A stretch of DNA of 39,238 nucleotides from Verrucomicrobiia bacterium (GTDB taxonomy: Bacteria; Verrucomicrobiota; Verrucomicrobiia; Chthoniobacterales; Chthoniobacteraceae): assembly GCA_040376335.1 (NCBI GenBank), contig JBEIQV010000001.1, positions 1 to 39,238 of the forward strand. Direction: 5' to 3'. How positions within the stretch are numbered: the first letter of the stretch is position 1; each line of letters begins with the position of its first letter. Under the pieces are notes generated by a model that was given only the letters and a program-made list of their open reading frames with translations, had not been told where the DNA came from and ran no database searches. Shown here piece by piece: positions 5,929 through 38,780 of the stretch. A program made the position numbers and the translations under genes.

Positions 5929-6074
5929 TATCGTGGAGGTTGCGGGAATGTGAGCGGTGCTGGAAAGGAGAAAGACGGGCCGTGCGAATGACTTTGAGCC
6001 TTTTCCGCACAGTTCGTCGCGACTAAGACCTAACAGTCGCTTGTATTACTCCCTAAGTCATCATCTCTCCGCCC

Positions 6075-8441
6075 ATGAAAACTAAAGCCACTTTCGCAGC
6101 GATCATTTTTGTTGTCGCTGTTGCGCGTGCGGGGTCGCCCAGCGTGACCTCCATGGTGCCTGCGGCTGCGCAGCGAGGAACGGAAATTGAAGTCGTTGTC
6201 AAAGGCGCAAGGCTCGATGACGCACGCACGCTGTTGTTTGACCAGCCTGGGATCGAAGTCGTCGGCATGAGTGCAGCGGAAAAGGAAAAGTTCACCGCAA
6301 AACTCAAAGTCGCTCACGGTGCGCGTATTGGCGAATATGCATTTCGTGCAGTGACCGCCTCCGGCATCTCGGATGTGCGTCTTTTCTATGTGACGCCCTA
6401 TCCTTTGCTGAAGGAGACGGATGAGGAAAAAGGAGACTCCGGCAAGACGCAGAGTGTTCCATTGGGCGTGACGGTTTACGGCAATGCGCCGGGCGAGGAT
6501 CAGGACCGTTACGAGGTGGATCTCAAAAAAGGACAACGGCTCAGTGCGGAGGTGGTTGGTGTGCGACTCTCGTCTTCGCAGCAGCAGATTTTTGATCCGC
6601 ATTTGAGCATCGCCAAGCCGGACGGCACGGGGCTCGTAACGATGGACGACTGTTCTTTCACGCAGCAGGATCCCGCTGTCAGCGTGATTGCTCCCGAGGA
6701 TGGAAAATATCGGGTCACACTGCGCGAGGCGACGAACGGCACGCAGGGTTCGAGCAATTACCTCCTGCACATCGGTAGTCATCCGCGCCCGATGGTCGCA
6801 TTTCCCGCCGGAGGGCAGGCGGGCACGGCATTGAAAGTGTTGATGCTCGGCGACGCTGGCGGAACATTTGAGCAGACGGTGACGCTGCCCGCCGCACCCG
6901 ATTCGCGCTACGAATTGCTCGCGCAAAAGGACGGGATCACTGCGCCGCAGCCGAATTTTCTGCGCGTCGTAGATTTCCCAAATGTGCTCGAAGCTGCTGA
7001 GCCTAACAACGACATCACTACGGCCACGGTTGCGACGGGGTCGCTGCCTCTGGCTTTTAACGGAATCATCCAGACGAAGGAAGACGTGGATTTTTTTAAG
7101 TTCAGCGCGAAGAAGGGGCAGATGTTTGATTTCACCAGCCACTCGCGAGAGATGCGCTCGCCGATTGATACGGTCATCAACATCCAAAATTCCAAAGGCG
7201 CAAATGTCGGCGGTAATGATGATCAAGGCGGGCCAGACAGTTACCTTCGCTGGACTGCCCCCGAGGACGGAGATTTTTTCCTCACCGTGCGGGATCATCT
7301 CAAGCGCGGCGGGCCGCTTTTCATCTATCGAATCGAAGCGCAGACCGTGCAGCAAAAGCTGCTCAGCTACATCCCCGAGACGGTGCAGAACAGTTCGCAA
7401 GAGCGCCGCGCAGTGCCGGTGCCGAAGGGAAATCGCTACGCCACACTTCTGCGCGTGAAGCGTGTGGATGTCGGCGGCGATGTGATCATCGAACCGAAAG
7501 ACCTGCCCCCCGGCGTTACTGCAAGCACGGTCAAAATGGACAAGTCGGTGGACGCAGTGCCTGTCGTCTTCGCTGCCAATACCGATGCACAGCTAACACA
7601 AGCGACGTTTGAGCTTTTGCCAAAACTTGCTGCACCGACCGATAGCGCGAAGGTTGTCTCCAAGGTCGAGCACCGCGTCGAGGTCGCGGAGAATGGCAAC
7701 CAGCGCGCATACTACGGAATCACCGAGAACACACTGGCCATTGCGGTGACAGATGAGGTGCCAGTCACGCTCAGCGTCACGCAACCAAAAGCGCCTGTCT
7801 TTCAAAATGGTTCGATGAATTTGAAAGTCATCGCCGAGCGCAAGAACGACGCGGAAGGCAAGCCGCTCTACAAAGGCCCGATACAAATCCAGCTACTCTA
7901 CGCACCGACCGGCATCGGCACACCGGGTATTGTCACCATTCCCGAAGGGCAAAACGAAGGCACTATCACTCTCAGCGCGAATGGCACCGCCGCTGCCGCG
8001 AAGTGGAAAACCTGCGTCATCGGCAGCACAGCCATGAGCAAAGGCACGGTTTGGATCAGCAGTGAGCTTTTTGATCTCGAAGTCGCTGCGCCATTCGTCA
8101 CCGGCACGCTTGTGCGCACGAATGTGGAGCAAAACAGCACAGGGAGCATGACGCTGAAGCTCGATCAAAAAGTCGCGTTCGATGGTAAGGCGAAAGTCGC
8201 CCTCGTCGGCCTGCCTCAAGGCATCAGCGCCGATGAACACGAGATTACCAAGGACGACAAGGAGGTGAAATTTACAGTCACAGCGGATGCGAAGGCACAA
8301 ATTGGCCAGCACAAGACGCTCTTCGCCTCTTTTACCTTATTGCGTGATGGAGAGCCGATGAGCAGCACCATTGCCAGCGGCGGAATTCTGCGCGTAGAAA
8401 AACCCACCTCAGCGGCGAAAATTACTGACGTTAAAAAATAA
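6075..8441 (+). CDS. Secreted protein with pre-peptidase C-terminal (PPC)-like domains
   Basis: 788 aa. Signal peptide MKTKATFAAIIFVVAVARAGS. Two PPC-type segments (GEDQDRYEVDLKKGQRLSAEV; EPNNDITTATVATGSLPLAFNGIIQTKEDVDFFKFSAKKGQMFDF...GGNDDQGGPDSYL). The C-terminal half is beta-rich. Confidence 0.75.
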   Translation: MKTKATFAAIIFVVAVARAGSPSVTSMVPAAAQRGTEIEVVVKGARLDDARTLLFDQPGIEVVGMSAAEKEKFTAKLKVAHGARIGEYAFRAVTASGISDVRLFYVTPYPLLKETDEEKGDSGKTQSVPLGVTVYGNAPGEDQDRYEVDLKKGQRLSAEVVGVRLSSSQQQIFDPHLSIAKPDGTGLVTMDDCSFTQQDPAVSVIAPEDGKYRVTLREATNGTQGSSNYLLHIGSHPRPMVAFPAGGQAGTALKVLMLGDAGGTFEQTVTLPAAPDSRYELLAQKDGITAPQPNFLRVVDFPNVLEAAEPNNDITTATVATGSLPLAFNGIIQTKEDVDFFKFSAKKGQMFDFTSHSREMRSPIDTVINIQNSKGANVGGNDDQGGPDSYLRWTAPEDGDFFLTVRDHLKRGGPLFIYRIEAQTVQQKLLSYIPETVQNSSQERRAVPVPKGNRYATLLRVKRVDVGGDVIIEPKDLPPGVTASTVKMDKSVDAVPVVFAANTDAQLTQATFELLPKLAAPTDSAKVVSKVEHRVEVAENGNQRAYYGITENTLAIAVTDEVPVTLSVTQPKAPVFQNGSMNLKVIAERKNDAEGKPLYKGPIQIQLLYAPTGIGTPGIVTIPEGQNEGTITLSANGTAAAAKWKTCVIGSTAMSKGTVWISSELFDLEVAAPFVTGTLVRTNVEQNSTGSMTLKLDQKVAFDGKAKVALVGLPQGISADEHEITKDDKEVKFTVTADAKAQIGQHKTLFASFTLLRDGEPMSSTIASGGILRVEKPTSAAKITDVKK

Positions 8442-8463: not shown

Positions 8464-9240
8464 TTATTTCAATCCCCGGCGAAGAAGCTTGGACGTGCCG
8501 CTCACAGGATCGATCATCCAAGTCACAAAGTTTGCAGGTGCTAGTTGCGTAGGGTTTAAACCTGGCGTTTCGGTTTTATCTGTAATGTGGTGCAGTGTGA
8601 TAAACCACTTTCCGCCTGCAGTTGCCGTAGTGCCTGATCCGTTTGGTGCGAGGGAGGTAGTTCCATCGGGCATAAAGCGGAAGTAGACATAGTCGTAGTT
8701 CTTTTTTACCCCGCGAGGCAGTTCCGGGTCTTTCGGCAGCAACTTCGCGCTAAGAACGGCGCGCGATTTTTCGGGATTCGAAGGATTCGCGGCATTGGCA
8801 ATAAGTTCATCGCCCAGCAAGGAGGAAAGTGTTGTATCCTTATACGTGGCGGTATTTGATCCTACGTATCCTTTGTTCATCACGATCCCATCGGGCAGGC
8901 GTTTGAATTTTCCGGCGGGCAAAATATCGCCGGAGTCTGAAATCTCGAAAAATTGGAATGCACGGAATTGCCAAGATGTCGGGGAAGCCACGGTTTCGCC
9001 GGGTGTTTCAGGATCAGCAAAGCGATAAAAACGAAACTCCACGATGCGGCTCTTGGTGAGCGCGTGCTGGCGGGCAAGTGCGATCTCATCCGACAGCATA
9101 TTGGCCCCTGTATTCAAGCCTGAGCCCTTGAGCATACCCTTGACGGCGGGCACTGCAAAAGCGCCGATGATGCCGATGATGGCGATGACAACGAGCATTT
9201 CGACAAGCGAGAAGGCGGAGCGTTTAGTAGGTGAGTGCAT
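8464..9240 (-). CDS. Prepilin-type N-terminal cleavage/methylation domain protein (pseudopilin-like)
   Basis: 258 aa. Class III signal peptide KRSAFSLVEMLVVIAIIGIIGAFAVP. This architecture is common in Verrucomicrobia and Planctomycetes, possibly of the Verru_Chthon cassette type. Confidence 0.85.
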   Translation of the reverse strand: MHSPTKRSAFSLVEMLVVIAIIGIIGAFAVPAVKGMLKGSGLNTGANMLSDEIALARQHALTKSRIVEFRFYRFADPETPGETVASPTSWQFRAFQFFEISDSGDILPAGKFKRLPDGIVMNKGYVGSNTATYKDTTLSSLLGDELIANAANPSNPEKSRAVLSAKLLPKDPELPRGVKKNYDYVYFRFMPDGTTSLAPNGSGTTATAGGKWFITLHHITDKTETPGLNPTQLAPANFVTWMIDPVSGTSKLLRRGLK

Positions 9241-17547: not shown

Positions 17548-18538
17548 CATGCTCCGCATCCTCATCACCCTGCTCCTACTCGGCGGGATGAGCTTTGGTG
17601 CGACGAAGAAATCTTCCAAGTCGTCGAAGGCTTCTGCCTCTAAAACCGCACATAAAAAGTCGCCCCCAAAGACCACGACAAAAAAGCCAGTCGTTAAAAA
17701 AGCAGAACCTCCACTGCCCCCACCTGCCCCGCTCGCACCGGGCGAACTGCCACTCGCTGCCCGCTCCGCGCTTTGTCTCGATTTAAAAACCGGGAAGGTG
17801 CTTTACGAAAAAGAGGCGGACGAAATGGAATATCCGGCGAGCGCCACGAAAATCCTCACAGCGCTTCTAGTGATCGAAGCTGGTGATCTCGATAGACTCG
17901 TAGAGGTCCAGATCGAGGATACAAAAGTCGAACCAAGCGCGTTGGAATTTAAGCCCGGCGAAAGCTACGCACGGCGTGATCTGCTTTACGCACTGCTACT
18001 CAAAAGCGCGAACGACGTGGCTCTAGCGCTGGCTCGCGACAACGCCGGCAGCGTCGAAGCTTTCGCTGAAAAAATGAACAAGCGCGCAGAGGGACTCGGT
18101 GCCAGTTCCTCGCACTTCGTAAATCCCCACGGACTGCATGACCCCCACCATTTTACGACAGCACGCGACCTCGCAGCCATCGCGCGTGCAGCGATGCAGG
18201 ACGAAACCTTCCGCGAAATCGTGAGCACTTTGGAAAAGCGGATGATGCGCGGCGAAGAGGAGGTTTTACTGCGCAATCATAACAAGCTGCTCGGAAAACT
18301 GCCTGGCTGCACAGGGATCAAGACAGGCTTCACGCGGCACGCGCAGCAAGTTCTCGTCAGTGGCGCGATGTGCGAGGGGTGTGAGGTAATTTCAGTCGTT
18401 CTTCACACAAACAAACCCGGTATTTGGGAAGACTCAAAGATGCTGCTCACAGACGGACTGGAAAAACTCAAAGCACCCGGGGACACAAATGCTGTTCCAG
18501 CCGAAACGAAGAGCGCTAGTGGAGCTGACTCGAAGTAG
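17525..18538 (+). CDS. D-alanyl-D-alanine carboxypeptidase (peptidase S11, PBP5/6-like)
   Basis: SxxK (SATK), SxN (SAND) and KTG (KTGFT) motifs. Signal peptide MLRILITLLLLGGMSFGA. An alternative start at ATG 17549 would remove the overlap with the upstream gene. A Lys/Pro-rich linker follows the signal peptide. Confidence 0.85.
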   Translation: MEKSFPNNMLRILITLLLLGGMSFGATKKSSKSSKASASKTAHKKSPPKTTTKKPVVKKAEPPLPPPAPLAPGELPLAARSALCLDLKTGKVLYEKEADEMEYPASATKILTALLVIEAGDLDRLVEVQIEDTKVEPSALEFKPGESYARRDLLYALLLKSANDVALALARDNAGSVEAFAEKMNKRAEGLGASSSHFVNPHGLHDPHHFTTARDLAAIARAAMQDETFREIVSTLEKRMMRGEEEVLLRNHNKLLGKLPGCTGIKTGFTRHAQQVLVSGAMCEGCEVISVVLHTNKPGIWEDSKMLLTDGLEKLKAPGDTNAVPAETKSASGADSK

Positions 18539-22196: not shown

Positions 22197-23081
22197 ATGT
22201 ATATCGATTCATTCAAAGTCTTCTGCGACCTAGTCAAAACCAGCAGTTTCTCAAAGTCCGCAGTGCTCAACAACATCACCCAAAGTGCGGTCAGTCAGCA
22301 AGTGCGCAGCTTGGAAATTCGATTCGACTGCACGCTCGTTGAGCGCGGACGGCGCAATCTTTCGCTCACTCCCGAAGGCCTTGCCTTTCATAAGACATGC
22401 GAAAAAATAATTTCTGTCTGGGATGATTTCGAAGCACGACTCAAGGAAATCAAAAATGTTGTTGAAGGCGAGGTTCGTGTGGCTTCGATCTACAGCATCG
22501 GGTTGCACGAATTACCAGCACGCCTGAAAACTTTTAGCGACAAAAACCCGGATGTGCACGTGCGTGTCGATTACTGCCGTTCACAGCAGGTGTATGAAAT
22601 GATTGAGTCCGGCAAAGCCGATCTCGGCTTGGTGGCTTATCCTGCAAAACATTCGGGCGTCCTGTTTGAAGTTTTCGATGAAGATCATCTGGTGTTGATT
22701 TGCCATCCGAAGCACCCATTGGCCGCAAAGAAGAAAGTTTCACTGAGCGCGCTCAAGGGAGAGAAGTTCCTCTCTTTCGATCCTGAATCGCCCACACGTA
22801 AAGCCATTGATCGATGCCTGCGTGACGCCCAAGTGAAGGTCGTGAACGCTGGTGAATTCGACAATATCGAAACAGTCAAACGCTCAGTCGAAATCGAGAG
22901 CGGCATCTCCATCGTGCCTTCGCACTCGATAAAGCAGGAGGTGAAAGCTGGCCGACTCGTCGCAGTGGAAATAGAGGGTCAGAAACTAACGCGTCCGCTA
23001 GGGCTTGTTTACAGCCGCACGCGTCCCCGTCCCGCGGGCCTGAAAGAACTGATCGCTTCGCTCAAGGAGTCCGCGAAGTAA
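22197..23081 (+). CDS. LysR-family transcriptional regulator
   Basis: 294 aa. N-terminal wHTH (FSKSAVLNNITQSAVSQQVRSLE) and a C-terminal substrate-binding domain. Confidence 0.9.
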   Translation: MYIDSFKVFCDLVKTSSFSKSAVLNNITQSAVSQQVRSLEIRFDCTLVERGRRNLSLTPEGLAFHKTCEKIISVWDDFEARLKEIKNVVEGEVRVASIYSIGLHELPARLKTFSDKNPDVHVRVDYCRSQQVYEMIESGKADLGLVAYPAKHSGVLFEVFDEDHLVLICHPKHPLAAKKKVSLSALKGEKFLSFDPESPTRKAIDRCLRDAQVKVVNAGEFDNIETVKRSVEIESGISIVPSHSIKQEVKAGRLVAVEIEGQKLTRPLGLVYSRTRPRPAGLKELIASLKESAK

Positions 23082-29569: not shown

Positions 29570-29576
29570 GTCGCGA

Positions 29577-29795
29577 TTAGACCGTGCTCAGGACGCGGGG
29601 CTCCGGGGATTTTTCGAGGGCGGTTTCGTTGGCGGCGATGCCGAGGAGGTTTTTGGCTTCAAATTCCTTGCACCAGCCTTTGATTTCCGTGTCGTTGAAA
29701 ATTTTCCCGAGCACGCGGCGGAGCAATCCTTTCAACGAAGGATTTTCGAGTTCGCTGAGGCTTTGGATGGCTTGCTCTTTGTAGCGTTCGTCATC
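29577..29795 (-). pseudogene. Orphan 3' fragment (last 70 codons + TAA) of the DUF116-polyprenyl synthase gene
   Basis: The minus-strand translation is DDERYKEQAIQSLSELENPSLKGLLRRVLGKIFNDTEIKGWCKEFEAKNLLGIAANETALEKSPEPRVLSTV*. It matches the C-terminus of the 36882-38663 gene at 68 of 70 residues. There is no start codon, and an in-frame stop lies immediately upstream at 29796-29798. Confidence 0.85.
29578..29790. repeat. Left copy of the 213-bp direct repeat bounding the zor islet
   Basis: Hand alignment to 36883-37095 gives 196/213 identical with no indels. Similarity stops abruptly on both sides. Confidence 0.9.
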
Positions 29796-29835
29796 TTAGA
29801 ATTCTATAGAACGAACAATCTGCTCGCAATTCGCT

Positions 29836-31695
29836 ATGGTTATGCGAAGCCGCGATAACTTCCTCATGGGATTTTCACTCCAGCTATTCACGGACTTGCG
29901 TTTTGTATGGGCCTGCGTGGGTTTCCTAACCACGCTTGCTTTGGTGACTGGTGCGCTTTGGTTGTGGCGCTGCCGTCAGGCAATAACGGCATTGAAAAAA
30001 GCGCGCATCACTCTCGCTGGGAGTTCGGGGCAGACCGAGTTTGCGGCGGATTATCACGGATTTATTGAGCGAATTCGGGGAGCAGTCAGACGCGTGCCGG
30101 CATTTCACGAGGCTTGGGAGCGGTGGGAACGGATTCTCCAGTCGTTCCAAAGAGCGGATGGTAAGCAGGTAATTTCCGCCGAAAAGCCAGCGAGCGATTT
30201 TTTCACTCTCGCGGCTTGGGAGCGGAGCATGGCTATGCACTGGTATCGCGCGCTGCCAAATTATCTCGTGGGGCTGGGGCTGTGTTGCGCGTTTCTCGGT
30301 GTAGTCGCTGTGATCCAAGGCGCTGCAACGAGCCTTCAAACCGCACAGCATGTTGCGCTTTCTCCGGAAGAAATCGCGCAATACAAGGACAAGCCGTCTG
30401 AGGCAGCGGGTTATCTAGCTGCAAAGGTTGCTGCCATGCAAACGGAAGCATTGCGGAGTCTTCTGGATGCGGCATCGTTCAAATTCGTCACCTCGCTCGT
30501 AGGCGTCGCGATGTCGCTGGCCTACTCGCTGTTCTTTCGCTGGCGGCGCATCAACGTCGAACGCCACATCGCGGACTTGGTGGCTGATTTGAACCGCCGG
30601 GTTTTCATGTTGAATCCCACGGCGCTACTGCTCCAAATCCGCGAGGAAAACCAGCATCAGACGGGATGCTTGGAGACGATGGCAACGAACGTCGGAGTGG
30701 CTGTCGGAGAGCAGTTCACGAAGGCAACGCAGGTGATGGGGGACGCGCTTTCGCGGCTGGAAGCCACTGTGCAGGCAATGGGGGCGCAGATGGGCGAAAA
30801 GACCGATGCGATGAAGCAGGCGATTGACGGCATGAGCGGCGGGATCGTCGAGACAACCTCGAAAGATCTCGAAAAACTTGTGACTGCCGCAGTTGAGTTG
30901 CTCAATACAACGCTCAAACAGCACCTCGAAGAAGTGGCCAACGCCTTGAAAGATACCGGTGTAGAAATCGAAGCTGCGCGCTTGGCGTTTGGCGAGGTGC
31001 TCGGGCACGCGCGAGTGGTGCGTGGAGAGTATGCCACGCTGGCGGAGGAAATCCAGGCACGCACTAGCGAGGTGAGCGAACTGCTATTGAAAGCTGAGGG
31101 TGAAGTAGAGACAAGACTGCGCGGCGCGGTGACGGCCGCGGAGGAAATCCAAACAGCCCTTGGCAAGGCGGCGGAGAGCGCATCGGGCATGGATTCTCTT
31201 GGTGCGGGACTGGCTAAGGCGGCATCGGCGGTGGAGAGTGCCGCGACCAACTGGCAGACGATGGGCGAGGATTTCAGCAAGCTCACGCTCGCAAATGGCA
31301 ACGCATCCGAAACGGTGCGGGCGGCGATGGAATCGCTGCGGGCGCATTGGGAGGCGCAGGGGGCGAGGATCGGCGAAATAGACACCCACCTCGCGGCGAC
31401 GATTGGCGCGGTTCAGCAGCATTTTGACGGTTACGCGCTACGACTGCGGGAATACACGACGGAACTGGATTCACAGCTCGGCCGTGCCGTGGGCAGCTTC
31501 AGTGCGGTGATTGAGTCGCTCAGTGATGCACCCGAGCGTTTCGGAGATGCCGGAGCGCAGTTGCAAAAGGCCGCGCAAAACGCCATGAGTGCGCTGGAAC
31601 CGCTCCGCAAACTCGATGGCCTCGCCGCCGCAATTTCCAAATCGGCTGACGCCTTGCGTGCGGCCATTCCTGAAGCACAAGAACCTCAGCCGTGA
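29836..31695 (+). CDS. zorA: ZorA-like MotA/ExbB-type channel protein with a long helical tail
   Basis: 619 aa. TM helices FVWACVGFLTTLALVTGALWLW, YLVGLGLCCAFLGVVAVIQGAA and FVTSLVGVAMSLAYSLFF, then about 350 aa of Ala/Glu/Leu/Gln-rich helical sequence. First gene of a 4-nt-overlap operon. Confidence 0.75.
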   Translation: MVMRSRDNFLMGFSLQLFTDLRFVWACVGFLTTLALVTGALWLWRCRQAITALKKARITLAGSSGQTEFAADYHGFIERIRGAVRRVPAFHEAWERWERILQSFQRADGKQVISAEKPASDFFTLAAWERSMAMHWYRALPNYLVGLGLCCAFLGVVAVIQGAATSLQTAQHVALSPEEIAQYKDKPSEAAGYLAAKVAAMQTEALRSLLDAASFKFVTSLVGVAMSLAYSLFFRWRRINVERHIADLVADLNRRVFMLNPTALLLQIREENQHQTGCLETMATNVGVAVGEQFTKATQVMGDALSRLEATVQAMGAQMGEKTDAMKQAIDGMSGGIVETTSKDLEKLVTAAVELLNTTLKQHLEEVANALKDTGVEIEAARLAFGEVLGHARVVRGEYATLAEEIQARTSEVSELLLKAEGEVETRLRGAVTAAEEIQTALGKAAESASGMDSLGAGLAKAASAVESAATNWQTMGEDFSKLTLANGNASETVRAAMESLRAHWEAQGARIGEIDTHLAATIGAVQQHFDGYALRLREYTTELDSQLGRAVGSFSAVIESLSDAPERFGDAGAQLQKAAQNAMSALEPLRKLDGLAAAISKSADALRAAIPEAQEPQP

Positions 31696-32579
31696 ACGAA
31701 CCATCCGGCCAACACGACGAAGCGGAGGAAAACTACTTCATCTCGCTCAGCGACCTCATGACCGGCGTGGTCTTCATCTTCGTGATTCTGCTTTGCGCGT
31801 TCGCCTTTCACTACCAGAGCGCCCAACGCGACGCTGACTCGAAAGCGAAAGACTACAATGATGCCAAAGCAAACGCCGATGCTGAAAAAAAGAAGGCGGA
31901 TAACGCACAGGATCTGGCAAACGAAGCGACAGAAAAAGCCAAGGCTGCAGAGGCGGATGCGAAAGAGAAAGGGCGGAAGATTGACGCGCTCAGTAAGCTG
32001 CTGCGCGACCGCGACAATGCCCTGCGCGTGATCCTGAGCGAACTTGTGGACAAGCTTGCGGCTCGCGGAGTCCGTGTGATGTTCGACCCGGCGACGGGTG
32101 TCATTCGTCTGCCAGAGGAGCTGCTTTTCGATCGTGGCAGCAACATCCTGAGCGAGAGCGGACGGCGTGGCCTTTCGGTGTTGGCGGAGGAAATCGTCCC
32201 CGTCCTGCATCGCGGTTGCGCAGAAGGCTCCACTTTCCGGCTCGAAGCCGTTTTCATCGAAGGCCACACTGACGCCGATCCGATTCGTTCACCGCGCTTC
32301 GCGGACAACTGGGATCTCTCCGCCGCACGCGCGACGAACACCTATCGCACGCTCACCGCGGCCAAGCCTGAGCTGGAATCCTTCCGCAATCCGGGCGGGC
32401 TCCGTGTCATCGGCGTGAGCGGCTACGGCGAGAACCGTCCCGTGGCTCCGAACGACACGGATGCAAACAAAAAGGCGAACCGCCGTGTGGACTTGCGGTT
32501 CCTCATGGCGCGCCCGACAGATGCCGAACTCGAACGCGCACGGCGGGAAATTGATGGACCGCCAAAGCCCGAAAAGTGA
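31692..32579 (+). CDS. zorB: ZorB-like MotB/OmpA-family protein
   Basis: 295 aa. MotB-type N-terminus with conserved Asp (YFISLSDLMTGVVFIFVILL). A charged Lys/Ala/Asp/Glu linker. OmpA-like peptidoglycan-binding domain (IEGHTDADPI...NWDLSAARATN...GYGENRPVAPNDTDANKKANRRVDLRF). The GTG start overlaps the zorA TGA. Confidence 0.8.
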   Translation: MNEPSGQHDEAEENYFISLSDLMTGVVFIFVILLCAFAFHYQSAQRDADSKAKDYNDAKANADAEKKKADNAQDLANEATEKAKAAEADAKEKGRKIDALSKLLRDRDNALRVILSELVDKLAARGVRVMFDPATGVIRLPEELLFDRGSNILSESGRRGLSVLAEEIVPVLHRGCAEGSTFRLEAVFIEGHTDADPIRSPRFADNWDLSAARATNTYRTLTAAKPELESFRNPGGLRVIGVSGYGENRPVAPNDTDANKKANRRVDLRFLMARPTDAELERARREIDGPPKPEK

Positions 32580-34018
32580 CCGCCATGCCGTCGCCTCTCG
32601 CCGTCCAGTTGCAATCGCTGCGTAGAAGCCTCCACTCTCGCGAAGTGCAGCCATTTCCCGTGCGCGCTCTAACGGCTGCCGTGAATGCGCTCGGTGACTG
32701 TGCGCTTGCGGAACCTCCGCCGCCACACGACCGCCTCGCCAAATTGTTTGAAAACATCTGCGCACAACTCTCCGCAGGCGTGCCTGTGGTGGAACTCAGC
32801 AAATCTGAGTGGCTGGATGCACCGTGGCTAGTGTTCGAACGCTGGAATGAGCGCGCCTTTGTAGAAGTAGGCGCGTTTCGCAATGGATTGTCGCTGGCGG
32901 CGGGTGCAAGCGCGATGGTGGGCAGGCGGTGTATCTACGTATTTCTCCGCGACTACGACCCGGAGGCTGCGCGTATTACTGCGCCGCTAGGACTCGTGAT
33001 TAGTGACGCTCTACAAGCCGGACACGAAACGCTTGCGGCGTGGGTAGAGCGAAGTCGGCAATTCCGCCATTTTGCGCCCGATGGTGGGCCGCCGGCTGTC
33101 GTGGAACAGTTGCGTTCTTCTCGTCCCGAAAAGCCGGTGACACATCATTTCGAAGATGTCGGAATCAGCGGCCCACTCGCACACGGCGGCTTTTCGTTTG
33201 GGATGCTACTCGCATGGTGCAGTCGCGCACACGAGCGTCCTTGGGAAAATCAGGAAATCATTGAGAATTGGATGACTCAGTGTTCCGGCCCAATGGCGGG
33301 TAGAGAGTATCGAGTTGTTGAGCGTCTTTTATTACCGTGGCGCTCCGAAGACCCCGCCGGAGAATGGAGAACACCGCTACTCTCTTGGCTGCAAGAGCGA
33401 TACGGTGATCCTCGTGATGCTGTTGCAGGCGTTTGGCCGCAAGTGGACGCGGAACTTCGTGATGTCGCTGTCCGCTGGCTAACGCTACAAACCATCGAAG
33501 GATTTTTCGAGGCGCTTGACGATTATGCACGTCGGCGCGGAGATGATGCGATGCGGCAGCAATGGCCATTTCGCAAAGCATTCTGGCTTGCATACTACCG
33601 CCGTGGTGTCGTTCTTGATGCCAAGGCCGCAGTCGGGCGTGATATGGAGGAATGTCTTGGTTGGCAATCGCTCAAGTCACGATTTGGAAACCGGCTTGCG
33701 AAGCTCGAAAAGTTTGAATCAAAGCAATCCGCACTCTTCCTCAAGCTCCGTGGCCTCTTGGTGTTTGTCGGCACACACAATGCGAAATGCCGCCTTTGGG
33801 ATGAGGCGTCCCCGCATGCTCCAAATCTTCGCAGAACCTCGTTTCACTACTCTGAAATCATCGCGATCCCGCGCACAGATTTACTTGTGGATGGGTATGC
33901 TAACGAGACGGGTATTGCCCACATGGGCGCAGAAAACGGAACGTGGCAGCGTAAATTACGCGACTTCCTGCGCCAAAGGATCGGCGTCTCGATTCCTGAT
34001 ACTGAACTGATGCCATGA
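32576..34018 (+). CDS. zorC: ZorC-like protein (EH-signature-family candidate, divergent)
   Basis: 480 aa, soluble, with no catalytic motif recognised. The call rests on position and size between a MotB-like and an SNF2 gene, plus the WPFRKAFWLAYY...LVFVGTHNAKCRLW region resembling the ZorC core. There are 4-nt overlaps on both sides. Confidence 0.55.
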   Translation: MTAMPSPLAVQLQSLRRSLHSREVQPFPVRALTAAVNALGDCALAEPPPPHDRLAKLFENICAQLSAGVPVVELSKSEWLDAPWLVFERWNERAFVEVGAFRNGLSLAAGASAMVGRRCIYVFLRDYDPEAARITAPLGLVISDALQAGHETLAAWVERSRQFRHFAPDGGPPAVVEQLRSSRPEKPVTHHFEDVGISGPLAHGGFSFGMLLAWCSRAHERPWENQEIIENWMTQCSGPMAGREYRVVERLLLPWRSEDPAGEWRTPLLSWLQERYGDPRDAVAGVWPQVDAELRDVAVRWLTLQTIEGFFEALDDYARRRGDDAMRQQWPFRKAFWLAYYRRGVVLDAKAAVGRDMEECLGWQSLKSRFGNRLAKLEKFESKQSALFLKLRGLLVFVGTHNAKCRLWDEASPHAPNLRRTSFHYSEIIAIPRTDLLVDGYANETGIAHMGAENGTWQRKLRDFLRQRIGVSIPDTELMP

Positions 34019-36885
34019 CATACGACCTCAATTCAGAAGGCTTTCTCCTACGCAACAACGGGCAGCCTTTTTCTCAATGGGCGATAGACGCCAAACCCGT
34101 TCTCAGCGCCGCTTGCGCAACTCTTGCGGCACTTGCCGAGGAAAGCAGCTCGGAGCTTCTGCGTGACGGAGATTCAGGCTTTCTCTTGCCCCATGCAGAC
34201 GCTGCCGCATTGCCGGAAGCGGAAGCTCGAGCCCTGGGATTGCCTCAACGGTCGCCGTTCAGTTTGAGCATTCAGCATCGTGGAACGTTGGCGTCGCCGG
34301 ACTTTCGATTTCAACATCAACTCTTCAACGATGGTCGCCCGCTCATCGGGCCAAGGCGAGTCGGCTGCGTCATTCAAACAGGAGCGCAATCATGGCGATT
34401 GAGCTCCGCACATTTTGCCCTGCTCGATGGGATGGATGCGCTCAACGGTGGGCTCATAGGCTCAATGGAAGAGCGGATGCGAGTGTTTGCACGCTTTGAG
34501 CAGTTCCTCTCACAGCAGGCGCGTGATTCAGTAAATGTCAGCGGCTATCTTGCGGCGACGCATGTGGCGGTAGCCGGGGCCTTTTCGCTGCGGCTACGCG
34601 TGAAGGATGGGCGTTTTCGACTTGAACCGGTGCTGCACGCAAGCACGGCGACAGAAACGGACACACCGCCCGAGTTACTCCCGCCAGAGCAGCACAAAGA
34701 GTTCATCCGAACTCACGAAGCCGGGCGAGGGCGCTTTGCGCTCGGCGGCTCGCATTTTCTCGTCATTGAGGAAGACATGCAGCGTGCGCTAGACCTCGTA
34801 GCGGAGGTTCAGAAAAAGGACGACGGACACCAGACGGACTTCCTGCGCAATCCGCGTGCTTTTCTCCGTGCAGAATACGGTGATGCGCTACCGGAGGAAA
34901 CACTGGACGCTCTATTCGTGGAGACCCCTCAGTATTTGTCTGATCGCGTGAAAGGCATTGGGCTTTGGGACCCGCCGATCATTCCATGGGTGAAGTTGCC
35001 TGCGAATTCATGGCTACCACCGGAGGAATCTGGAATCGATTTTGGCGGCGTTCGCGTTGCGGTGCCGACTGCGCAGACAGACGAGATTATTCAGCGAGTG
35101 GAGCAGGCAATCGCGAGTGGAGATCCGGAGGTTGAAATCGGCGGGCAGATGGTTCCGGCAACTCAAGCGACGCTCGCGGCTTTGGAAAAAGTGAAATCGC
35201 TGGGTCAAACACCGAGAGAGCAAATCGAGCGCGAACAAAGCGCTACCACTGATCGCACCGTGCTTTTGATCGAGCGCGACTTTGATGATGCCGGCGCTGC
35301 GACTCGTCGCAGGAGCCGTGAGAGTGCGACCGATTTGTGGCTCCCTGTCGGCTTGCGGAGCACTTTAAAGCCACATCAGGAAACCGGCCTTCGCTGGCTG
35401 CAAACAACATGGCGCGAAGGCCGAAGCGGTGTGCTGCTTGCGGACGACATGGGCCTTGGCAAGACCCTACAATGCCTCGCTTTCCTCGTCTGGCTGCGGC
35501 ACGCACGGCCCGAGCGTGCGACGAATGAAGGCGGCTTCCTCATCGTCGCGCCAACGGGCTTGTTGCGAAACTGGGAGCAGGAATTCACGCAGCATCTTGA
35601 TGAAGCGGGACGCCGTTTGCTCGGCCCGCCACTCCGAGCTTACGGAAGTGACCTTGCACGGCTGCGAGTCGGTGCGGGCAATGACATCGTGCGCGGTGGC
35701 GTCTCGCTACGGACAGACGAAATCGCAAGTGCCGGATGGGTGCTGACGACCTACGAGACGCTGCGAGATTACCATCACAGCCTGGGGACGATTCGCTGGC
35801 AGGTGCTCGCCTTTGACGAAGCGCAGAAAATCAAGACACCCGGCACGCTCGTGAACGAAGCCGCGAAGGCGATGAACGCAGACTTCTCTCTAGCGCTGAC
35901 CGGCACGCCGGTAGAGAACCGCTACGCTGATCTGTGGAGTATCGTGAACACCGTAGACCGAACCGCACTCAGCGCTATCGGCGGAGGCTCCCTCTTTGAA
36001 TTCAGTGCGAAATTTGAGGCAGAGCCGGAAGATTCCGCGCTCCGCGAACTTCGCAACCATCTCACAGAACCAGCAGCCAGCGCGCTCATGCTGCGGCGGA
36101 TGAAACACGACATCCTCGAAGGACTGCCGCCCAAGACAGAACACAAAGCTCCTGCCGATATGCCGCCAGACCAAGCGCGACTTTACGCGGAAGCGGTGAA
36201 TCGAGCCCGCAGCATCCGCGAGCGCGGGATGATGCTCAAAGCCTTGCAAGAGTTCCGCGCAATCTCCCTGCATCCGTGGTTGATGAATGCGGAGGAACCG
36301 CCGGACATTTCTGCCCTCGCCGCGTGCTCTGCGCGAGTTGCGGAATGCTTTCGCGCCCTGCACCACATCCGCGCTCGGGGAGAAAAGGCACTCGTGTTTG
36401 TGGACTCACGGCGGATGCAAAAGTGGCTGCGCATCGTGATGCCATCGGAATTTGGCCTCGCTGAACCTCCCTCGTGCATCACCGGTGAAGTCCCCGGCGC
36501 ACGGCGTCAGGCTATAGTAAACGCCTTCCAAACCTTACCGGCCGGATTCGCGGTAATCCTTCTCTCGCCCCGTGCTGCTGGAGTCGGTCTCACCCTCACA
36601 GCGGCGAATCACGTCATCCACCTCGACCGTTGGTGGAATCCCGCCGTGGAAGATCAATGCACCGACCGCGTCTATCGCATCGGCCAAGAGAAGGCCGTGC
36701 AAGTCTGCCTCCCAATTGCACGCCACCCCGACCCACACCTCGCTGACATCTCTTTCGACCTCACGCTCGACCGCCTCATGCAGCGCAAGCGCACTCGCAG
36801 TCGCGACTTGCTCAATCCACCCGTGGAGACGGCGCAAGATACCGATGAGCTTTTCCGCAGTATTTGCGGACAATTGCCGAGCTAG
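34015..36885 (+). CDS. zorD: ZorD-like SNF2-family helicase
   Basis: 956 aa. About 440 aa of N-terminal region with no recognised domain. SNF2 motifs follow: LKPHQETGLRWL, LLADDMGLGKTLQ (motif I), VLAFDEAQKIK (motif II) and LALTGTPVENR (III). The helicase-C region reads LLSPRAAGVGLTLTAANHVIHLDRWWNPAVEDQCTDRVYRIGQ. Confidence 0.82.
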   Translation: MTYDLNSEGFLLRNNGQPFSQWAIDAKPVLSAACATLAALAEESSSELLRDGDSGFLLPHADAAALPEAEARALGLPQRSPFSLSIQHRGTLASPDFRFQHQLFNDGRPLIGPRRVGCVIQTGAQSWRLSSAHFALLDGMDALNGGLIGSMEERMRVFARFEQFLSQQARDSVNVSGYLAATHVAVAGAFSLRLRVKDGRFRLEPVLHASTATETDTPPELLPPEQHKEFIRTHEAGRGRFALGGSHFLVIEEDMQRALDLVAEVQKKDDGHQTDFLRNPRAFLRAEYGDALPEETLDALFVETPQYLSDRVKGIGLWDPPIIPWVKLPANSWLPPEESGIDFGGVRVAVPTAQTDEIIQRVEQAIASGDPEVEIGGQMVPATQATLAALEKVKSLGQTPREQIEREQSATTDRTVLLIERDFDDAGAATRRRSRESATDLWLPVGLRSTLKPHQETGLRWLQTTWREGRSGVLLADDMGLGKTLQCLAFLVWLRHARPERATNEGGFLIVAPTGLLRNWEQEFTQHLDEAGRRLLGPPLRAYGSDLARLRVGAGNDIVRGGVSLRTDEIASAGWVLTTYETLRDYHHSLGTIRWQVLAFDEAQKIKTPGTLVNEAAKAMNADFSLALTGTPVENRYADLWSIVNTVDRTALSAIGGGSLFEFSAKFEAEPEDSALRELRNHLTEPAASALMLRRMKHDILEGLPPKTEHKAPADMPPDQARLYAEAVNRARSIRERGMMLKALQEFRAISLHPWLMNAEEPPDISALAACSARVAECFRALHHIRARGEKALVFVDSRRMQKWLRIVMPSEFGLAEPPSCITGEVPGARRQAIVNAFQTLPAGFAVILLSPRAAGVGLTLTAANHVIHLDRWWNPAVEDQCTDRVYRIGQEKAVQVCLPIARHPDPHLADISFDLTLDRLMQRKRTRSRDLLNPPVETAQDTDELFRSICGQLPS

Positions 36886-38663
36886 ACCGTGCTCAGCACG
36901 CGGGGCTCGGGAGATTTTTCCAGTGCGGTTTCGTTGGCCGCGATACCGAGGAGGTTTTTGGCTTCGAATTCCTTGCACCAGCCTTTGATTTCCGTGTCGT
37001 TAAAAATTTTTCCGAGCACGCGGCGGAGCAATCCTTTCAAAGAAGGATTTTCCAGTTCACGGAGGCTTTGAATGGATTGTTCTTTGTAGCGTTCGAGGAG
37101 GTCGGTGCAGCGCTCCACTGCGCCGAGATCGCGATAGAGTTGCTCGACTTCGGCAATGCCCGCAGTGCTCGTGCGCGACCACAATGCGCTGGTGATTTTT
37201 CGATGCTCGCACTCGGCGCGTTCGTGTGCGGTGGCGAGGAGCAGGCTGGGGCGGAGGCCGGCGATATCGCTGGTGTCGGCGGTCTGGCCGAGGTCGGCGA
37301 GGTCGTCGCGGATTTGGTAGGCGATTCCGAGTGCTTCGCTATAGGCGTGCAGCACGTCGCGCACGGTGTCGTGTGTTTCGACGCCCGCAAACAGCGCGCC
37401 GATGCGCAGCGCGACCTCGAAAGCGGGAGCGGTTTTCTTTTTGAAAATATCGAGCACTTGTAGGCTCGTGAGCACATCGGGCTGGCGTGCCCAGACGAGT
37501 TCCGCACCCTGACCACGGCTGAGTTCGCGCTGGCCTTCGGCGGCGACGAGGAGCATTGCGGCGCGTTGTTCGGCGGAAATTTCGCACGCGCTCAGTAGGC
37601 GGTAGCCTTCGCCGATGAGCAGGTCGCCGATGTTCAATGCGACGGGGACGCCGTGTTCTTCGTGCAGCGTTTTTTCGCCGTAGCGCGTGGCGTCGCCATC
37701 TTCGATGTCGTCGTGAATGAGCGAGGCTTTGTGGAAGCACTCGACGGCGATGGCGGCGCGCTTGAGGTCGTCGGGTAATGTGGCGTTTGGACCCGCGAGT
37801 GCGCGCCATGCGGCGACGGCGAGGAAGGGCCGCCAGCGTTTACCCGCACGGGTGAGCCACTCGCGCGCGATGCGTTCTGTTTCGCCCTCGGCGGGGCCGA
37901 TGAGCGCGGTGAGTGATTCGCTGGAAAACCACGAGTCCACTTCGCTGCGGAGCGTGCCGAGATCGAGGCGGCGCGTGGAATCGTCGGCGGTGAGGTGGAT
38001 GTAGTCCCACACCCAGTCGAGATCCACGGTCGTATCAATGCAGTCGTCTTGCAGCAGCGGCACGGCGACGCCGGGAATGGCGGCGGCCTCCATGTAGGGG
38101 AAGCTGCGCTCCAGCACGCTGAGGCACGAAATGCCGACGATGGCCTCGATTTGCCCTGTCTGGATGAGCGACATCACGATGGCGCTACCCTCGGCGACGA
38201 GCACCGCGTAGCCGAGGCGCTCGGCTTCGTTTTGGAGATCCTGAATCGAGCACTGGCCGCATTGTTTGCACAGCAGGCCGAACTCATCGAACGGCGCGGG
38301 GCATTTGCTTTCGAGGCGCAGGCATTTCGGCATGAGCAGCAGCCGGCGCTCGAACGGCACGGCGGCGAGTTGCTCGCGCCACAGCTCGTTGTTGATCAAA
38401 ACACCCACGTAGTCGCGGTAGATGGCCGCGCAGCCGATGCGCTGGACGAGGCGATCTGCGTGCTCGCCGAGTTCCGCGAGCGGGACGGGTGGCGTGGGGC
38501 AAAACTCCGCGACGTAATTCCGCACCGCGTGCAAAATCGCTGTGCGTTCCTCGATGGTCTGCGGGATGTTTTTCTTCGGCTGACGAAAACGCGGCGGAGC
38601 CACCGGCTTCGGGAGCGAAAGTGAAATGGGCGGCACTGGCTGGCGCTGCGATTCAGTGGACAT
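36882..38663 (-). CDS. DUF116-like Cys-rich domain fused to a polyprenyl synthetase domain
   Basis: N-terminal half: LLLMPKCLRLESKCPAPFDEFGLLCKQCGQCSIQDLQNEAERLGYAVLVAEGSAIV...GISCLSVL (DUF116-like). C-terminal half: GKRWRP, ASLIHDDIEDGDATRYG (first DDxxD) and AYQIRDDLADL (second DDxxD). The ATG at 38663 is preferred, because the track start at 38777 is a TTG only 3 nt from the upstream stop. Confidence 0.8.
   Translation of the reverse strand: MSTESQRQPVPPISLSLPKPVAPPRFRQPKKNIPQTIEERTAILHAVRNYVAEFCPTPPVPLAELGEHADRLVQRIGCAAIYRDYVGVLINNELWREQLAAVPFERRLLLMPKCLRLESKCPAPFDEFGLLCKQCGQCSIQDLQNEAERLGYAVLVAEGSAIVMSLIQTGQIEAIVGISCLSVLERSFPYMEAAAIPGVAVPLLQDDCIDTTVDLDWVWDYIHLTADDSTRRLDLGTLRSEVDSWFSSESLTALIGPAEGETERIAREWLTRAGKRWRPFLAVAAWRALAGPNATLPDDLKRAAIAVECFHKASLIHDDIEDGDATRYGEKTLHEEHGVPVALNIGDLLIGEGYRLLSACEISAEQRAAMLLVAAEGQRELSRGQGAELVWARQPDVLTSLQVLDIFKKKTAPAFEVALRIGALFAGVETHDTVRDVLHAYSEALGIAYQIRDDLADLGQTADTSDIAGLRPSLLLATAHERAECEHRKITSALWSRTSTAGIAEVEQLYRDLGAVERCTDLLERYKEQSIQSLRELENPSLKGLLRRVLGKIFNDTEIKGWCKEFEAKNLLGIAANETALEKSPEPRVLSTV
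36883..37095. repeat. Right copy of the 213-bp direct repeat (functional 3' end of the fusion gene)
   Basis: See the left copy. This copy is contiguous with the intact ORF 36882-38663. Confidence 0.9.
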
Positions 38664-38780
38664 TGGTGAGGACGTTAGCGGCTGTGTGCGACAATCCGCA
38701 AGGGCGGAGGTTTCTTTGCGCGGGAGCGCAAAGAATCTGTTTGTCCCATCCGTCGAGCGCTGCGGCGCATAAGCCAACCG

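Follow-up and report, generated by a model that had tools for sequence, protein, structure and literature searches.

The stretch of DNA analyzed here, called the window, is 39,238 nucleotides (nt) long and comes from the chromosome of a bacterium of the Chthoniobacteraceae (contig JBEIQV010000001.1). Four plus-strand open reading frames (ORFs), encoding proteins of 619, 295, 480, and 956 amino acid residues (aa) in the ORF map, lie one behind the other at positions 29836-36885 and are bracketed by a direct repeat that duplicates the 3′ end of a neighboring polyprenyl-synthase gene. An initial annotation, made from the sequence without database searches, took the ORFs to be the zorA, zorB, zorC, and zorD genes of a type I Zorya anti-phage system situated in an inserted islet. 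The results described below lead us to a similar reading, as follows. The zorA-zorB-zorC-zorD genes form a complete type I Zorya anti-phage operon in a Chthoniobacteraceae chromosome, and the operon is a recently acquired cassette of ~7.1 kb. We put the probability of this reading at roughly 0.9. The Zorya family is reported to be widespread across Gram-negative phyla, and the window operon is a divergent branch of this known, mechanistically characterized family.

Gene content and identity of the operon

The zorA gene extends over positions 29836-31695, zorB over 31692-32579, zorC over 32576-34018, and zorD over 34015-36885. Their common direction, coordinates, and junction tetranucleotides (GTGA, GTGA, and ATGA) were checked base by base and are as first described. 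Each ORF has homologues at E < 1e-30, and so the four are real genes rather than chance reading frames. When the proteins were run against PADLOC, a check that the initial annotation had recommended, the top family for each of the four was the matching type I Zor protein, in the order ZorA-ZorB-ZorC-ZorD. The type I identity is likewise supported by Pfam and by matches to the solved structures of the E. coli ZorD and ZorC proteins (EcZorD and EcZorC) and of ZorA and ZorB from both E. coli and Shewanella. The same four genes co-occur in at least five unrelated genomic contexts. The residues essential in E. coli are mostly kept, namely, D21 of ZorB, the DEAQ motif and E523 of ZorD, and R333 and W337 of ZorC.

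The chain of overlapping ORFs stands as stated, but the GTG at 32576, which creates the zorB-zorC overlap, is likely not where zorC begins. All 19 of the ZorC homologues compared begin at the position of window Met4 (MPSPL...), and in the public gene call the protein has 477 aa. The true start is therefore most likely, from these comparisons, the ATG at 32585, 5 nt past the zorB stop. A contig search with the 480-aa, GTG-start form of ZorC returned no record, the recorded product being the 477-aa ATG form. For zorA, the homologues align from window Met11 onward, and by this alignment ATG 29866 would be an equally likely start as 29836.

ZorA matches PADLOC ZorA1 at E = 2.3e-33. By hydropathy, the protein has hydrophobic segments at residues 23-41, 144-162, and 215-233, and a tail of ~380 aa follows the third segment, with one proline only across residues 241-565. 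The three transmembrane (TM) helices and long helical tail attributed to ORF1 at the outset agree well with this layout. A profile of five ZorA sequences from the clade matches EcZorA (8qyy/8qyd) at 1e-13 and Shewanella ZorA (8vvn_C) at 1.7e-12. The loop between TM2 and TM3 has a 26-aa insertion, TAQHVALSPEEIAQYKDKPSEAAGYL, at residues ~168-193 (nt 30337-30414); of the five ZorA proteins aligned, only that of the window lineage has it. Internal repeats of ~32 aa are found in the tail, with a DNA repeat spaced 96 nt at window positions 31042-31168, and the ZorA tail of a relative, L083 (324-1436), has one extra repeat unit of ~45 aa. That is, the length of the ZorA tail differs among close relatives via gain and loss of repeats. 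The G-run at 30734-30738 of zorA reads GGGGG in the window and GGGG in the independent contig L081 (1068-1072). This 1-nt indel divides the L081 zorA into two ORFs; it may stem from an assembly error, from variation in the population, or from phase variation at the homopolymer.

ZorB matches PADLOC ZorB1 over its full length (E = 3.8e-71, 238 bits), and the suggested search with Pfam OmpA gave a score above the cut-off (1e-09, 39 bits; cut-off 27.2). The channel aspartate, Asp21, lies within LSDLM and is encoded by a GAC codon at 31752-31754, which was verified. Residues 7-47 align with residues 12-53 of EcZorB (8qyd_F), the TM region, with an offset of 5 that sets D21 opposite D26, and the match to Shewanella ZorB (8vvn_B) is at 2e-22. 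The OmpA-like peptidoglycan-binding domain displays the motifs GHTD, NWDLSAARA, and NRRVDL. Thus, both the TM aspartate and the OmpA-like domain predicted for ORF2 are found. A linker of ~50 aa, rich in Ala, Lys, Asp, and Glu, tethers the TM helix to the OmpA-like domain (residues 45-96; nt 31824-31979). The linker is probably helical; its length is kept among clade relatives, its sequence is not, and it may extend the reach of ZorB toward the peptidoglycan.

ZorC matches PADLOC ZorC1 at E = 2.5e-58 and Pfam EH_Signature (PF15611) at 2.9e-27, with 96.5 bits against a cut-off of 27.5. A profile of 20 ZorC sequences matches EcZorC (8r68_A) at 7.4e-06 and gives a residue-level alignment. An AlphaFold model of ZorC, with a mean pLDDT of 85.5, has EcZorC 8r68 as its sole significant Protein Data Bank (PDB) match in a Foldseek search (6e-08, probability 1.00, TM-score 0.45/0.53). 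The assignment of ORF3 as the EH-signature protein ZorC is, therefore, upheld by family models, by profile, and by fold. ZorC R333 and W337 are the conserved equivalents of R335 and W339, the network partners in EcZorC. His401 (33776-33778) is near-invariant in the family, the E. coli protein having Gly instead. The ratio dN/dS ranges from 0.02 to 0.36 along zorC, with 0.02 for codons 301-400, and purifying selection acts strongly on the 3′ half of zorC. In every comparison made, no part of the cassette evolves faster than the central helical domain of ZorC.

ZorD matches PADLOC ZorD1 at E = 1.2e-294. The two Pfam domains that were to be looked for in ORF4 are both present above gathering cut-offs, SNF2-rel_dom at 2e-45 and Helicase_C at 4e-15, and EcZorD (8qy7) aligns residue by residue at 1.9e-84. 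The Walker A motif GLGKT occupies residues 480-484 (nt 35452-35466), and DEAQ occupies residues 601-604 (nt 35815-35826), equivalent to EcZorD 730-733. Both motifs were confirmed at the base level where the initial annotation of a SNF2 helicase had put them. Glu523 (within 35569-35583) corresponds to EcZorD Glu651, the ATP-ribose Glu, and motif VI, QCTDR, is at 36655-36669. The stop codon of zorD (TAG, plus strand) and that of the convergent polyprenyl-synthase gene (TAG, minus strand) share the palindrome CTAG at 36882-36885. It follows that the cassette ends at the final sense codon of zorD, with no space for a terminator.

Insertion site and scar

The direct repeat bracketing the operon is 213-214 nt long, and its two copies are 92% identical and lie 7305 nt apart. 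On the minus strand, each copy codes for the C-terminal 70 residues of the polyprenyl synthase. The right copy, 36882-37095, is functional and forms the 3′ end of the DUF116-polyprenyl-synthase gene, which is intact (36882-38777, minus strand) and convergent with zorD. The left copy, 29577-29790, is a displaced, non-functional duplicate on the minus strand that holds the final 70 sense codons together with the stop (ERYKEQAIQSL...RVLSTV and stop), has a stop codon ahead of it, and adjoins the native GH130 flank.

Orthologues 98% identical to the DUF116-polyprenyl-synthase gene occur in two Chthoniobacteraceae metagenome-assembled genomes, L001 and L002. The host is a freshwater Chthoniobacteraceae lineage of the Verrucomicrobiota, in keeping with the Planctomycetes-Verrucomicrobia-Chlamydiae (PVC) group host that had been surmised. 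L001 has ~95% nucleotide identity to the window over 12.5 kb, and in it the 3′ end of the polyprenyl-synthase gene runs straight into the convergent GH130 gene. That is, L001 has a clean empty site, and this empty site, together with the flanking direct repeat, bears out the proposal of an inserted islet. L002, also ~95% identical, contains another insert, of 525 nt, at exactly the polyprenyl-synthase/GH130 junction (L002:12466-12990; window 29570-29577). The insert has two small overlapping ORFs of 71 and 84 aa, and a remnant of ~10 nt from the end of the native gene is also present. Given this second insert, the junction is a recurrent insertion point. The two ORFs of the L002 insert have no match in Pfam or PADLOC; the pair is toxin-antitoxin-like in layout alone. 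Both junctions of the Zorya cassette recur in independent assemblies from other samples, L081 (99.96% identical) and L143, and therefore the arrangement is not chimeric.

Apart from the four zor genes, the repeat-bounded unit of 7305 nt contains no gene, and neither a recombinase nor a tRNA or Rfam element was found in it. The two repeat copies differ at 18 positions, including the stop codon, which change just two amino acids. Of the differences within the 70 sense codons, 15 are synonymous and two non-synonymous, giving pN/pS = 0.039; were half the changes neutral, the probability of three or fewer non-synonymous changes would be P = 0.005. Therefore, most of the divergence between the copies arose while both were functional coding sequence in separate lineages. 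Either the cassette brought one repeat copy with it from a relative, or recombination with a relative later overwrote one of the copies. In all pairs compared, the polyprenyl-synthase gene evolves faster in its 3′ half.

Because the repeat copies differ almost only synonymously and the unit is without a recombinase, we suggest that the cassette most likely entered by insertion-duplication (Campbell-type) recombination, or by recombination with the DNA of a related lineage. The locus would thus be a clean natural record of a single defense operon entering a housekeeping locus, with an empty site, a scar, an alternative occupant, and near-identical cassettes with an imported zorC.

Related cassettes, allele exchange, and surroundings

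Relatives of the cassette were sought in metagenomes by alignment. The scan returned mostly distant type I loci (25-35%), and a scan with ZorC singly gave no relatives. Clade members with intact four-gene operons have ZorC identities of 48-81%. In L084 (ZorC 63%), where the block sits between the genes for PPDK and an RNase-H-like protein, a 34-nt terminator-like direct repeat brackets the Zorya block. In L085 (ZorC 59%), the bracketing direct repeat is ~238 nt long and 88% identical; the ORFs called in it look spurious, and the repeat has no Rfam family and no significant RNA fold (z = 0.07). No bracketing repeat was found at L087 and L088 (ZorC 48%), which lie beside a type I restriction-modification system. 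Among distant type I loci, L096 has 152-nt direct repeats, 96.7% identical, at 5996-6147 and 17813-17964, bounding a unit made up of Zorya, a McrB-like AAA protein, and a McrC-like protein. L123 has 92-nt direct repeats, 95.7% identical, at 112-203 and 8675-8766, and the unit between them includes Zorya and a 400-aa protein without an assigned function.

A census was taken of all 39 retrieved Zorya loci having both flanks present, with 61 same-size pseudo-cassettes in unrelated loci as controls. Bracketing direct repeats occur at five of the 39 Zorya loci and at none of the 61 controls; inverted repeats occur at none of the 39, and short inverted repeats at two of the 61 controls. No recombinase and no tRNA gene was found in any repeat-bounded Zorya unit. 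Phage records held no match to the ZorC clade, and plasmid records gave two distant relatives only.

An alternative is that a site-specific recombinase supplied in trans integrated the cassette, without homologous or insertion-duplication recombination; the cassette would then be a recombinase-less, cis-mobilizable element with its attachment (att) site in the 3′ end of the polyprenyl-synthase gene. We consider this unlikely, although the direct repeats start exactly at the 3′ end of the gene and restore it, the other small cassette sits at the same junction in L002 with its ~10-nt remnant repeat, and palindromes in the cassette leader, described below, adjoin the repeat boundary. The three targets are unrelated and their repeats measure 34, 213, and 238 nt, which is unlike a single att specificity; the repeats are 88-92% identical throughout, with no short identical core; and neither the window nor the repeat-bounded units at other loci yielded an integrase. 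The variety of targets and repeat lengths thus argues against a single site-specific integrase, and we infer that insertion-duplication or homology-assisted recombination fits the repeat pattern better.

Exchange also takes place within the cassettes. L143 (1-7173) has the same cassette at the same site and is 100% identical over ~5 kb save for a tract of ~2.1 kb, at ~31,560-33,700 of the window. The identities of the L143 proteins to those of the window are 99.2% for ZorA, 96.3% for ZorB, 80.9% for ZorC, and 99.6% for ZorD. In the divergent tract, pS is 0.6-0.74, near saturation, and dN/dS is 0.06-0.36, and therefore the L143 tract is an imported distant allele. Positive selection was considered as the source of the hypervariable patch of zorC and was rejected on these same values. 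The right repeat of L143 has three differences in 54 nt to the left copy of the window and seven in 54 nt to the right copy; it follows that the repeats themselves undergo exchange. L083 (1-6620, aligned with window 30400-36885) is a converse mosaic, in which zorA-zorC have ~68% and zorD ~90% nucleotide identity. The L083 context is unrelated, with Uma2, PPIase, rpoZ, and smpB downstream. The L083 pattern suggests an exchange of effector genes between cassettes.

It is tempting to generalize that the Zorya block of this clade is a recombinase-less mobile cassette that spreads by insertion-duplication at gene 3′ ends or terminators and then swaps zorC and zorD alleles. We hold this generalization to be doubtful at present. 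Should it hold widely, single defense systems would have an insufficiently described way of colonizing housekeeping loci beyond defense islands.

Between the left repeat and zorA lies a cassette-specific leader on the plus strand, 29791-29835 (to 29865 if Met11 is the start), which is identical in L081 and L143. Two overlapping perfect palindromes, AGAATTCT and TTCTATAGAA, occupy 29793-29812 of the leader, just inside the left repeat, and are flanked by GTTCGT...ACGAAC. The palindrome sequence is the same in the independent contigs L081 and L143; the palindromes could be an operator, a recombination site, or a chance occurrence. Alignment of the leaders of four cassettes revealed no common motif. 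The GT4-GH130 genes upstream point in the same direction as the zor operon, so that transcription of zor by read-through from them is possible.

The remainder of the window gave no further PADLOC match, and therefore Zorya is a lone insertion, outside any defense island. The neighbors of the operon are housekeeping genes. They include genes for a sigma-54 activator, PMI, a YggS-like protein, a LysR-family regulator, PNP, DHPS, GT4, GH130, LpxA, RadC, and a second polyprenyl synthase. The GC content is 0.586 for the cassette and 0.571 for the flanks. The segment 22001-23000, over the LysR-family regulator gene (22197-23081), has a dip in GC to 0.475 from ~0.57 and is unusually close to L001, with 1-3 differences per 100 nt. 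In L002, an AT-richer insert of 630 nt (L002:9993-10623), equivalent in position to window ~38723-38773, is located upstream of the coding region for the polyprenyl synthase. Neither the window nor L001 has this insert, whose product is a 148-aa zinc-ribbon/membrane-like protein.

Activity and comparison with known systems

Several observations weigh against the reading of a complete, recently acquired type I Zorya operon. The NCBIfam Zorya equivalogs all score under their curated cut-offs (ZorA_1, 100/190 bits; ZorB1, 32/400 bits; ZorD, 354/1500 bits), and NCBIfam does not detect ZorC at all. ZorA has no match to Pfam MotA_ExbB (PF01618), the model with which ORF1 was to have been recognized. 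The Ca2+-binding site that joins motor and tail in EcZorA includes E86 and E89, and in the profile alignment these residues stand opposite R96 and R99 of window ZorA; an acidic pair, E95/E98, is found one residue off this alignment in the window protein and is missing in the clade relatives. In ZorC, Val398 (33767-33769) takes the place of EcZorC Glu400, the first EH-signature residue. The promoter scan upstream of zorA found no plus-strand sigma-70-like site. As for the origin of the cassette, none of the 80 orthologous polyprenyl-synthase loci searched for a donor carries Zorya, and comparison with relatives singles out neither repeat copy as the incoming one: the sites compared with L001 and L002 are mosaic, and the three-way divergence shows no clear donor tract beyond the repeat. 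Lastly, phage defense, 5:2 stoichiometry, and ion coupling would be properties extrapolated from proteins ~15-40% identical.

The replacement of Glu400 deserves attention. In E. coli, Glu400 and His443 of ZorC are both essential, and the E400A mutant is abolished for defense (PMC11946911). Glu is kept at the equivalent position in three close ZorC homologues and in the distant ones; most clade members have Val. As for His443, the profile alignment ends at EcZorC residue 405, and a search with the C-terminal 108 residues gave only chance WD40/kringle matches. One explanation is that the Zorya-derived system is inactive, or functionally altered, in the window lineage, as might be argued from the loss of this Glu, from the absence of a consensus promoter of its own upstream of zorA, and from the frameshift at 30738 that splits zorA in L081. 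We find this explanation improbable. Neither the window nor L143 has a broken ORF among the four; Val is common to most clade members, whose four-gene operons stay intact; dN/dS along zorC is low, and the remaining tested residues are conserved; and the co-orientation with GT4-GH130 allows read-through. None of the deviations from E. coli Zorya points to decay, judging from the intact ORFs and the dN/dS of 0.02 in the conserved half of zorC. A ZorC subclade might be functional without the "E" of the EH signature.

The notion that ORF1 and ORF2 are ordinary MotAB/TolQR/ExbBD stator paralogues beside an unrelated helicase, with no role in defense, is effectively refuted by scores, neighbors, and the recurring linkage of the four genes: the top named NCBIfam models for ORF2 are indeed flagellar MotD and MotB, and MotB and PomB structures also match the ZorB periplasmic domain (1e-16 to 1e-09), but the MotD and MotB scores of 86 and 73 bits are far under the cut-offs of 283-301 bits, PADLOC ZorB1 matches over the full length, ORF1 matches ZorA models and solved ZorA rather than MotA_ExbB, ORF3 and ORF4 are ZorC and ZorD, and no flagellar, Tol-Pal, or Ton genes were found in the window, just as the initial annotation had remarked.

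We thus retain the reading of a complete type I Zorya operon. With it, the experimentally characterized type I Zorya gains a divergent branch, from freshwater Verrucomicrobiota, that is overlooked by the E. coli-centered NCBIfam models, yet caught by PADLOC. By homology with the E. coli, Serratia, and Shewanella systems (PMC11946911, PMC11890865), the proposed mechanism is as follows. ZorA and ZorB would form an ion-driven ZorA5B2 motor that senses perturbation of the envelope at phage entry. When phage injection perturbs the envelope, the OmpA-like domain of ZorB would anchor to peptidoglycan, with D21 as the channel aspartate. The motor would then turn, and the long pentameric coiled-coil tail of ZorA would relay the signal to the cytoplasm, where the EH-domain protein ZorC, which binds DNA, and ZorD, a SNF2 ATPase/nuclease under autoinhibition, would be recruited to degrade the invading phage DNA locally, sparing the cell.

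Genomic islands are known to enter gene 3′ ends, and both Campbell-type insertion-duplication and homology-facilitated illegitimate recombination are established processes. The window cassette is like such islands in that direct repeats of the target 3′ end flank the block and the target gene is restored. It is unlike them in that there is no integrase, tRNA target, or fixed att core, and in that repeat length and target vary. Of the features of an integrative element, then, the flanking direct repeats are present, whereas a recombinase and a single att target were not found.

At the protein level, DpdE and the DISARM protein DrmD share the SNF2 ATPase core of ZorD, but their PADLOC matches (1.9e-78 and 5.7e-22) are far weaker than that of ZorD1, and no Dpd or DISARM partner genes were found in the window. 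The 5:2 motors MotAB/PomAB and ExbBD/TolQR are like ZorAB in the ZorB-type TM aspartate and the OmpA-like peptidoglycan anchor. They differ in having an A subunit without the long cytoplasmic tail, in lacking ZorC and ZorD, and in their genomic context.

The nearest solved ZorB is that of the type I ZorAB of Shewanella sp. ANA-3 (PDB 8VVN; Mariano et al., Nat Commun 2025, PMC11890865), which belongs to the same 5:2 motor family and has the peptidoglycan-binding domain. In the window ZorB, the stretch from the TM helix to the periplasmic domain is ~46 residues longer (residue 89 aligns with chain residue 43), and Shewanella ZorA is 696 aa long versus 609-619 aa in the window.

The E. coli system is the reference for essential residues and mechanism (PMC11946911). 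The window operon shares with it the zorABCD order, the ZorB aspartate and OmpA-like domain, the three-TM ZorA with a long tail, the EH_Signature ZorC fold, and a ZorD SNF2 core with DEAQ and the Glu651 equivalent. The differences are as follows. Window ZorA has 609-619 aa versus 729 aa in E. coli, and its tail of ~380 aa would measure ~50-55 nm when scaled from the reported ~70 nm of the E. coli tail; in the profile alignment, the EcZorA Ca2+-site residues fall one position away from the acidic pair of window ZorA. Window ZorB is the longer protein, 295 aa versus 246 aa, and only it has the ~50-aa charged linker. ZorC has 477 aa versus 560 aa, with Val replacing Glu400, and ZorD has 956 aa versus 1080 aa, with ~110 residues fewer between the N- and C-terminal domains. 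The Val at the EcZorC Glu400 position, the long charged ZorB linker, and the shorter ZorA tail are natural variants with which the universality of the E. coli model can be probed.

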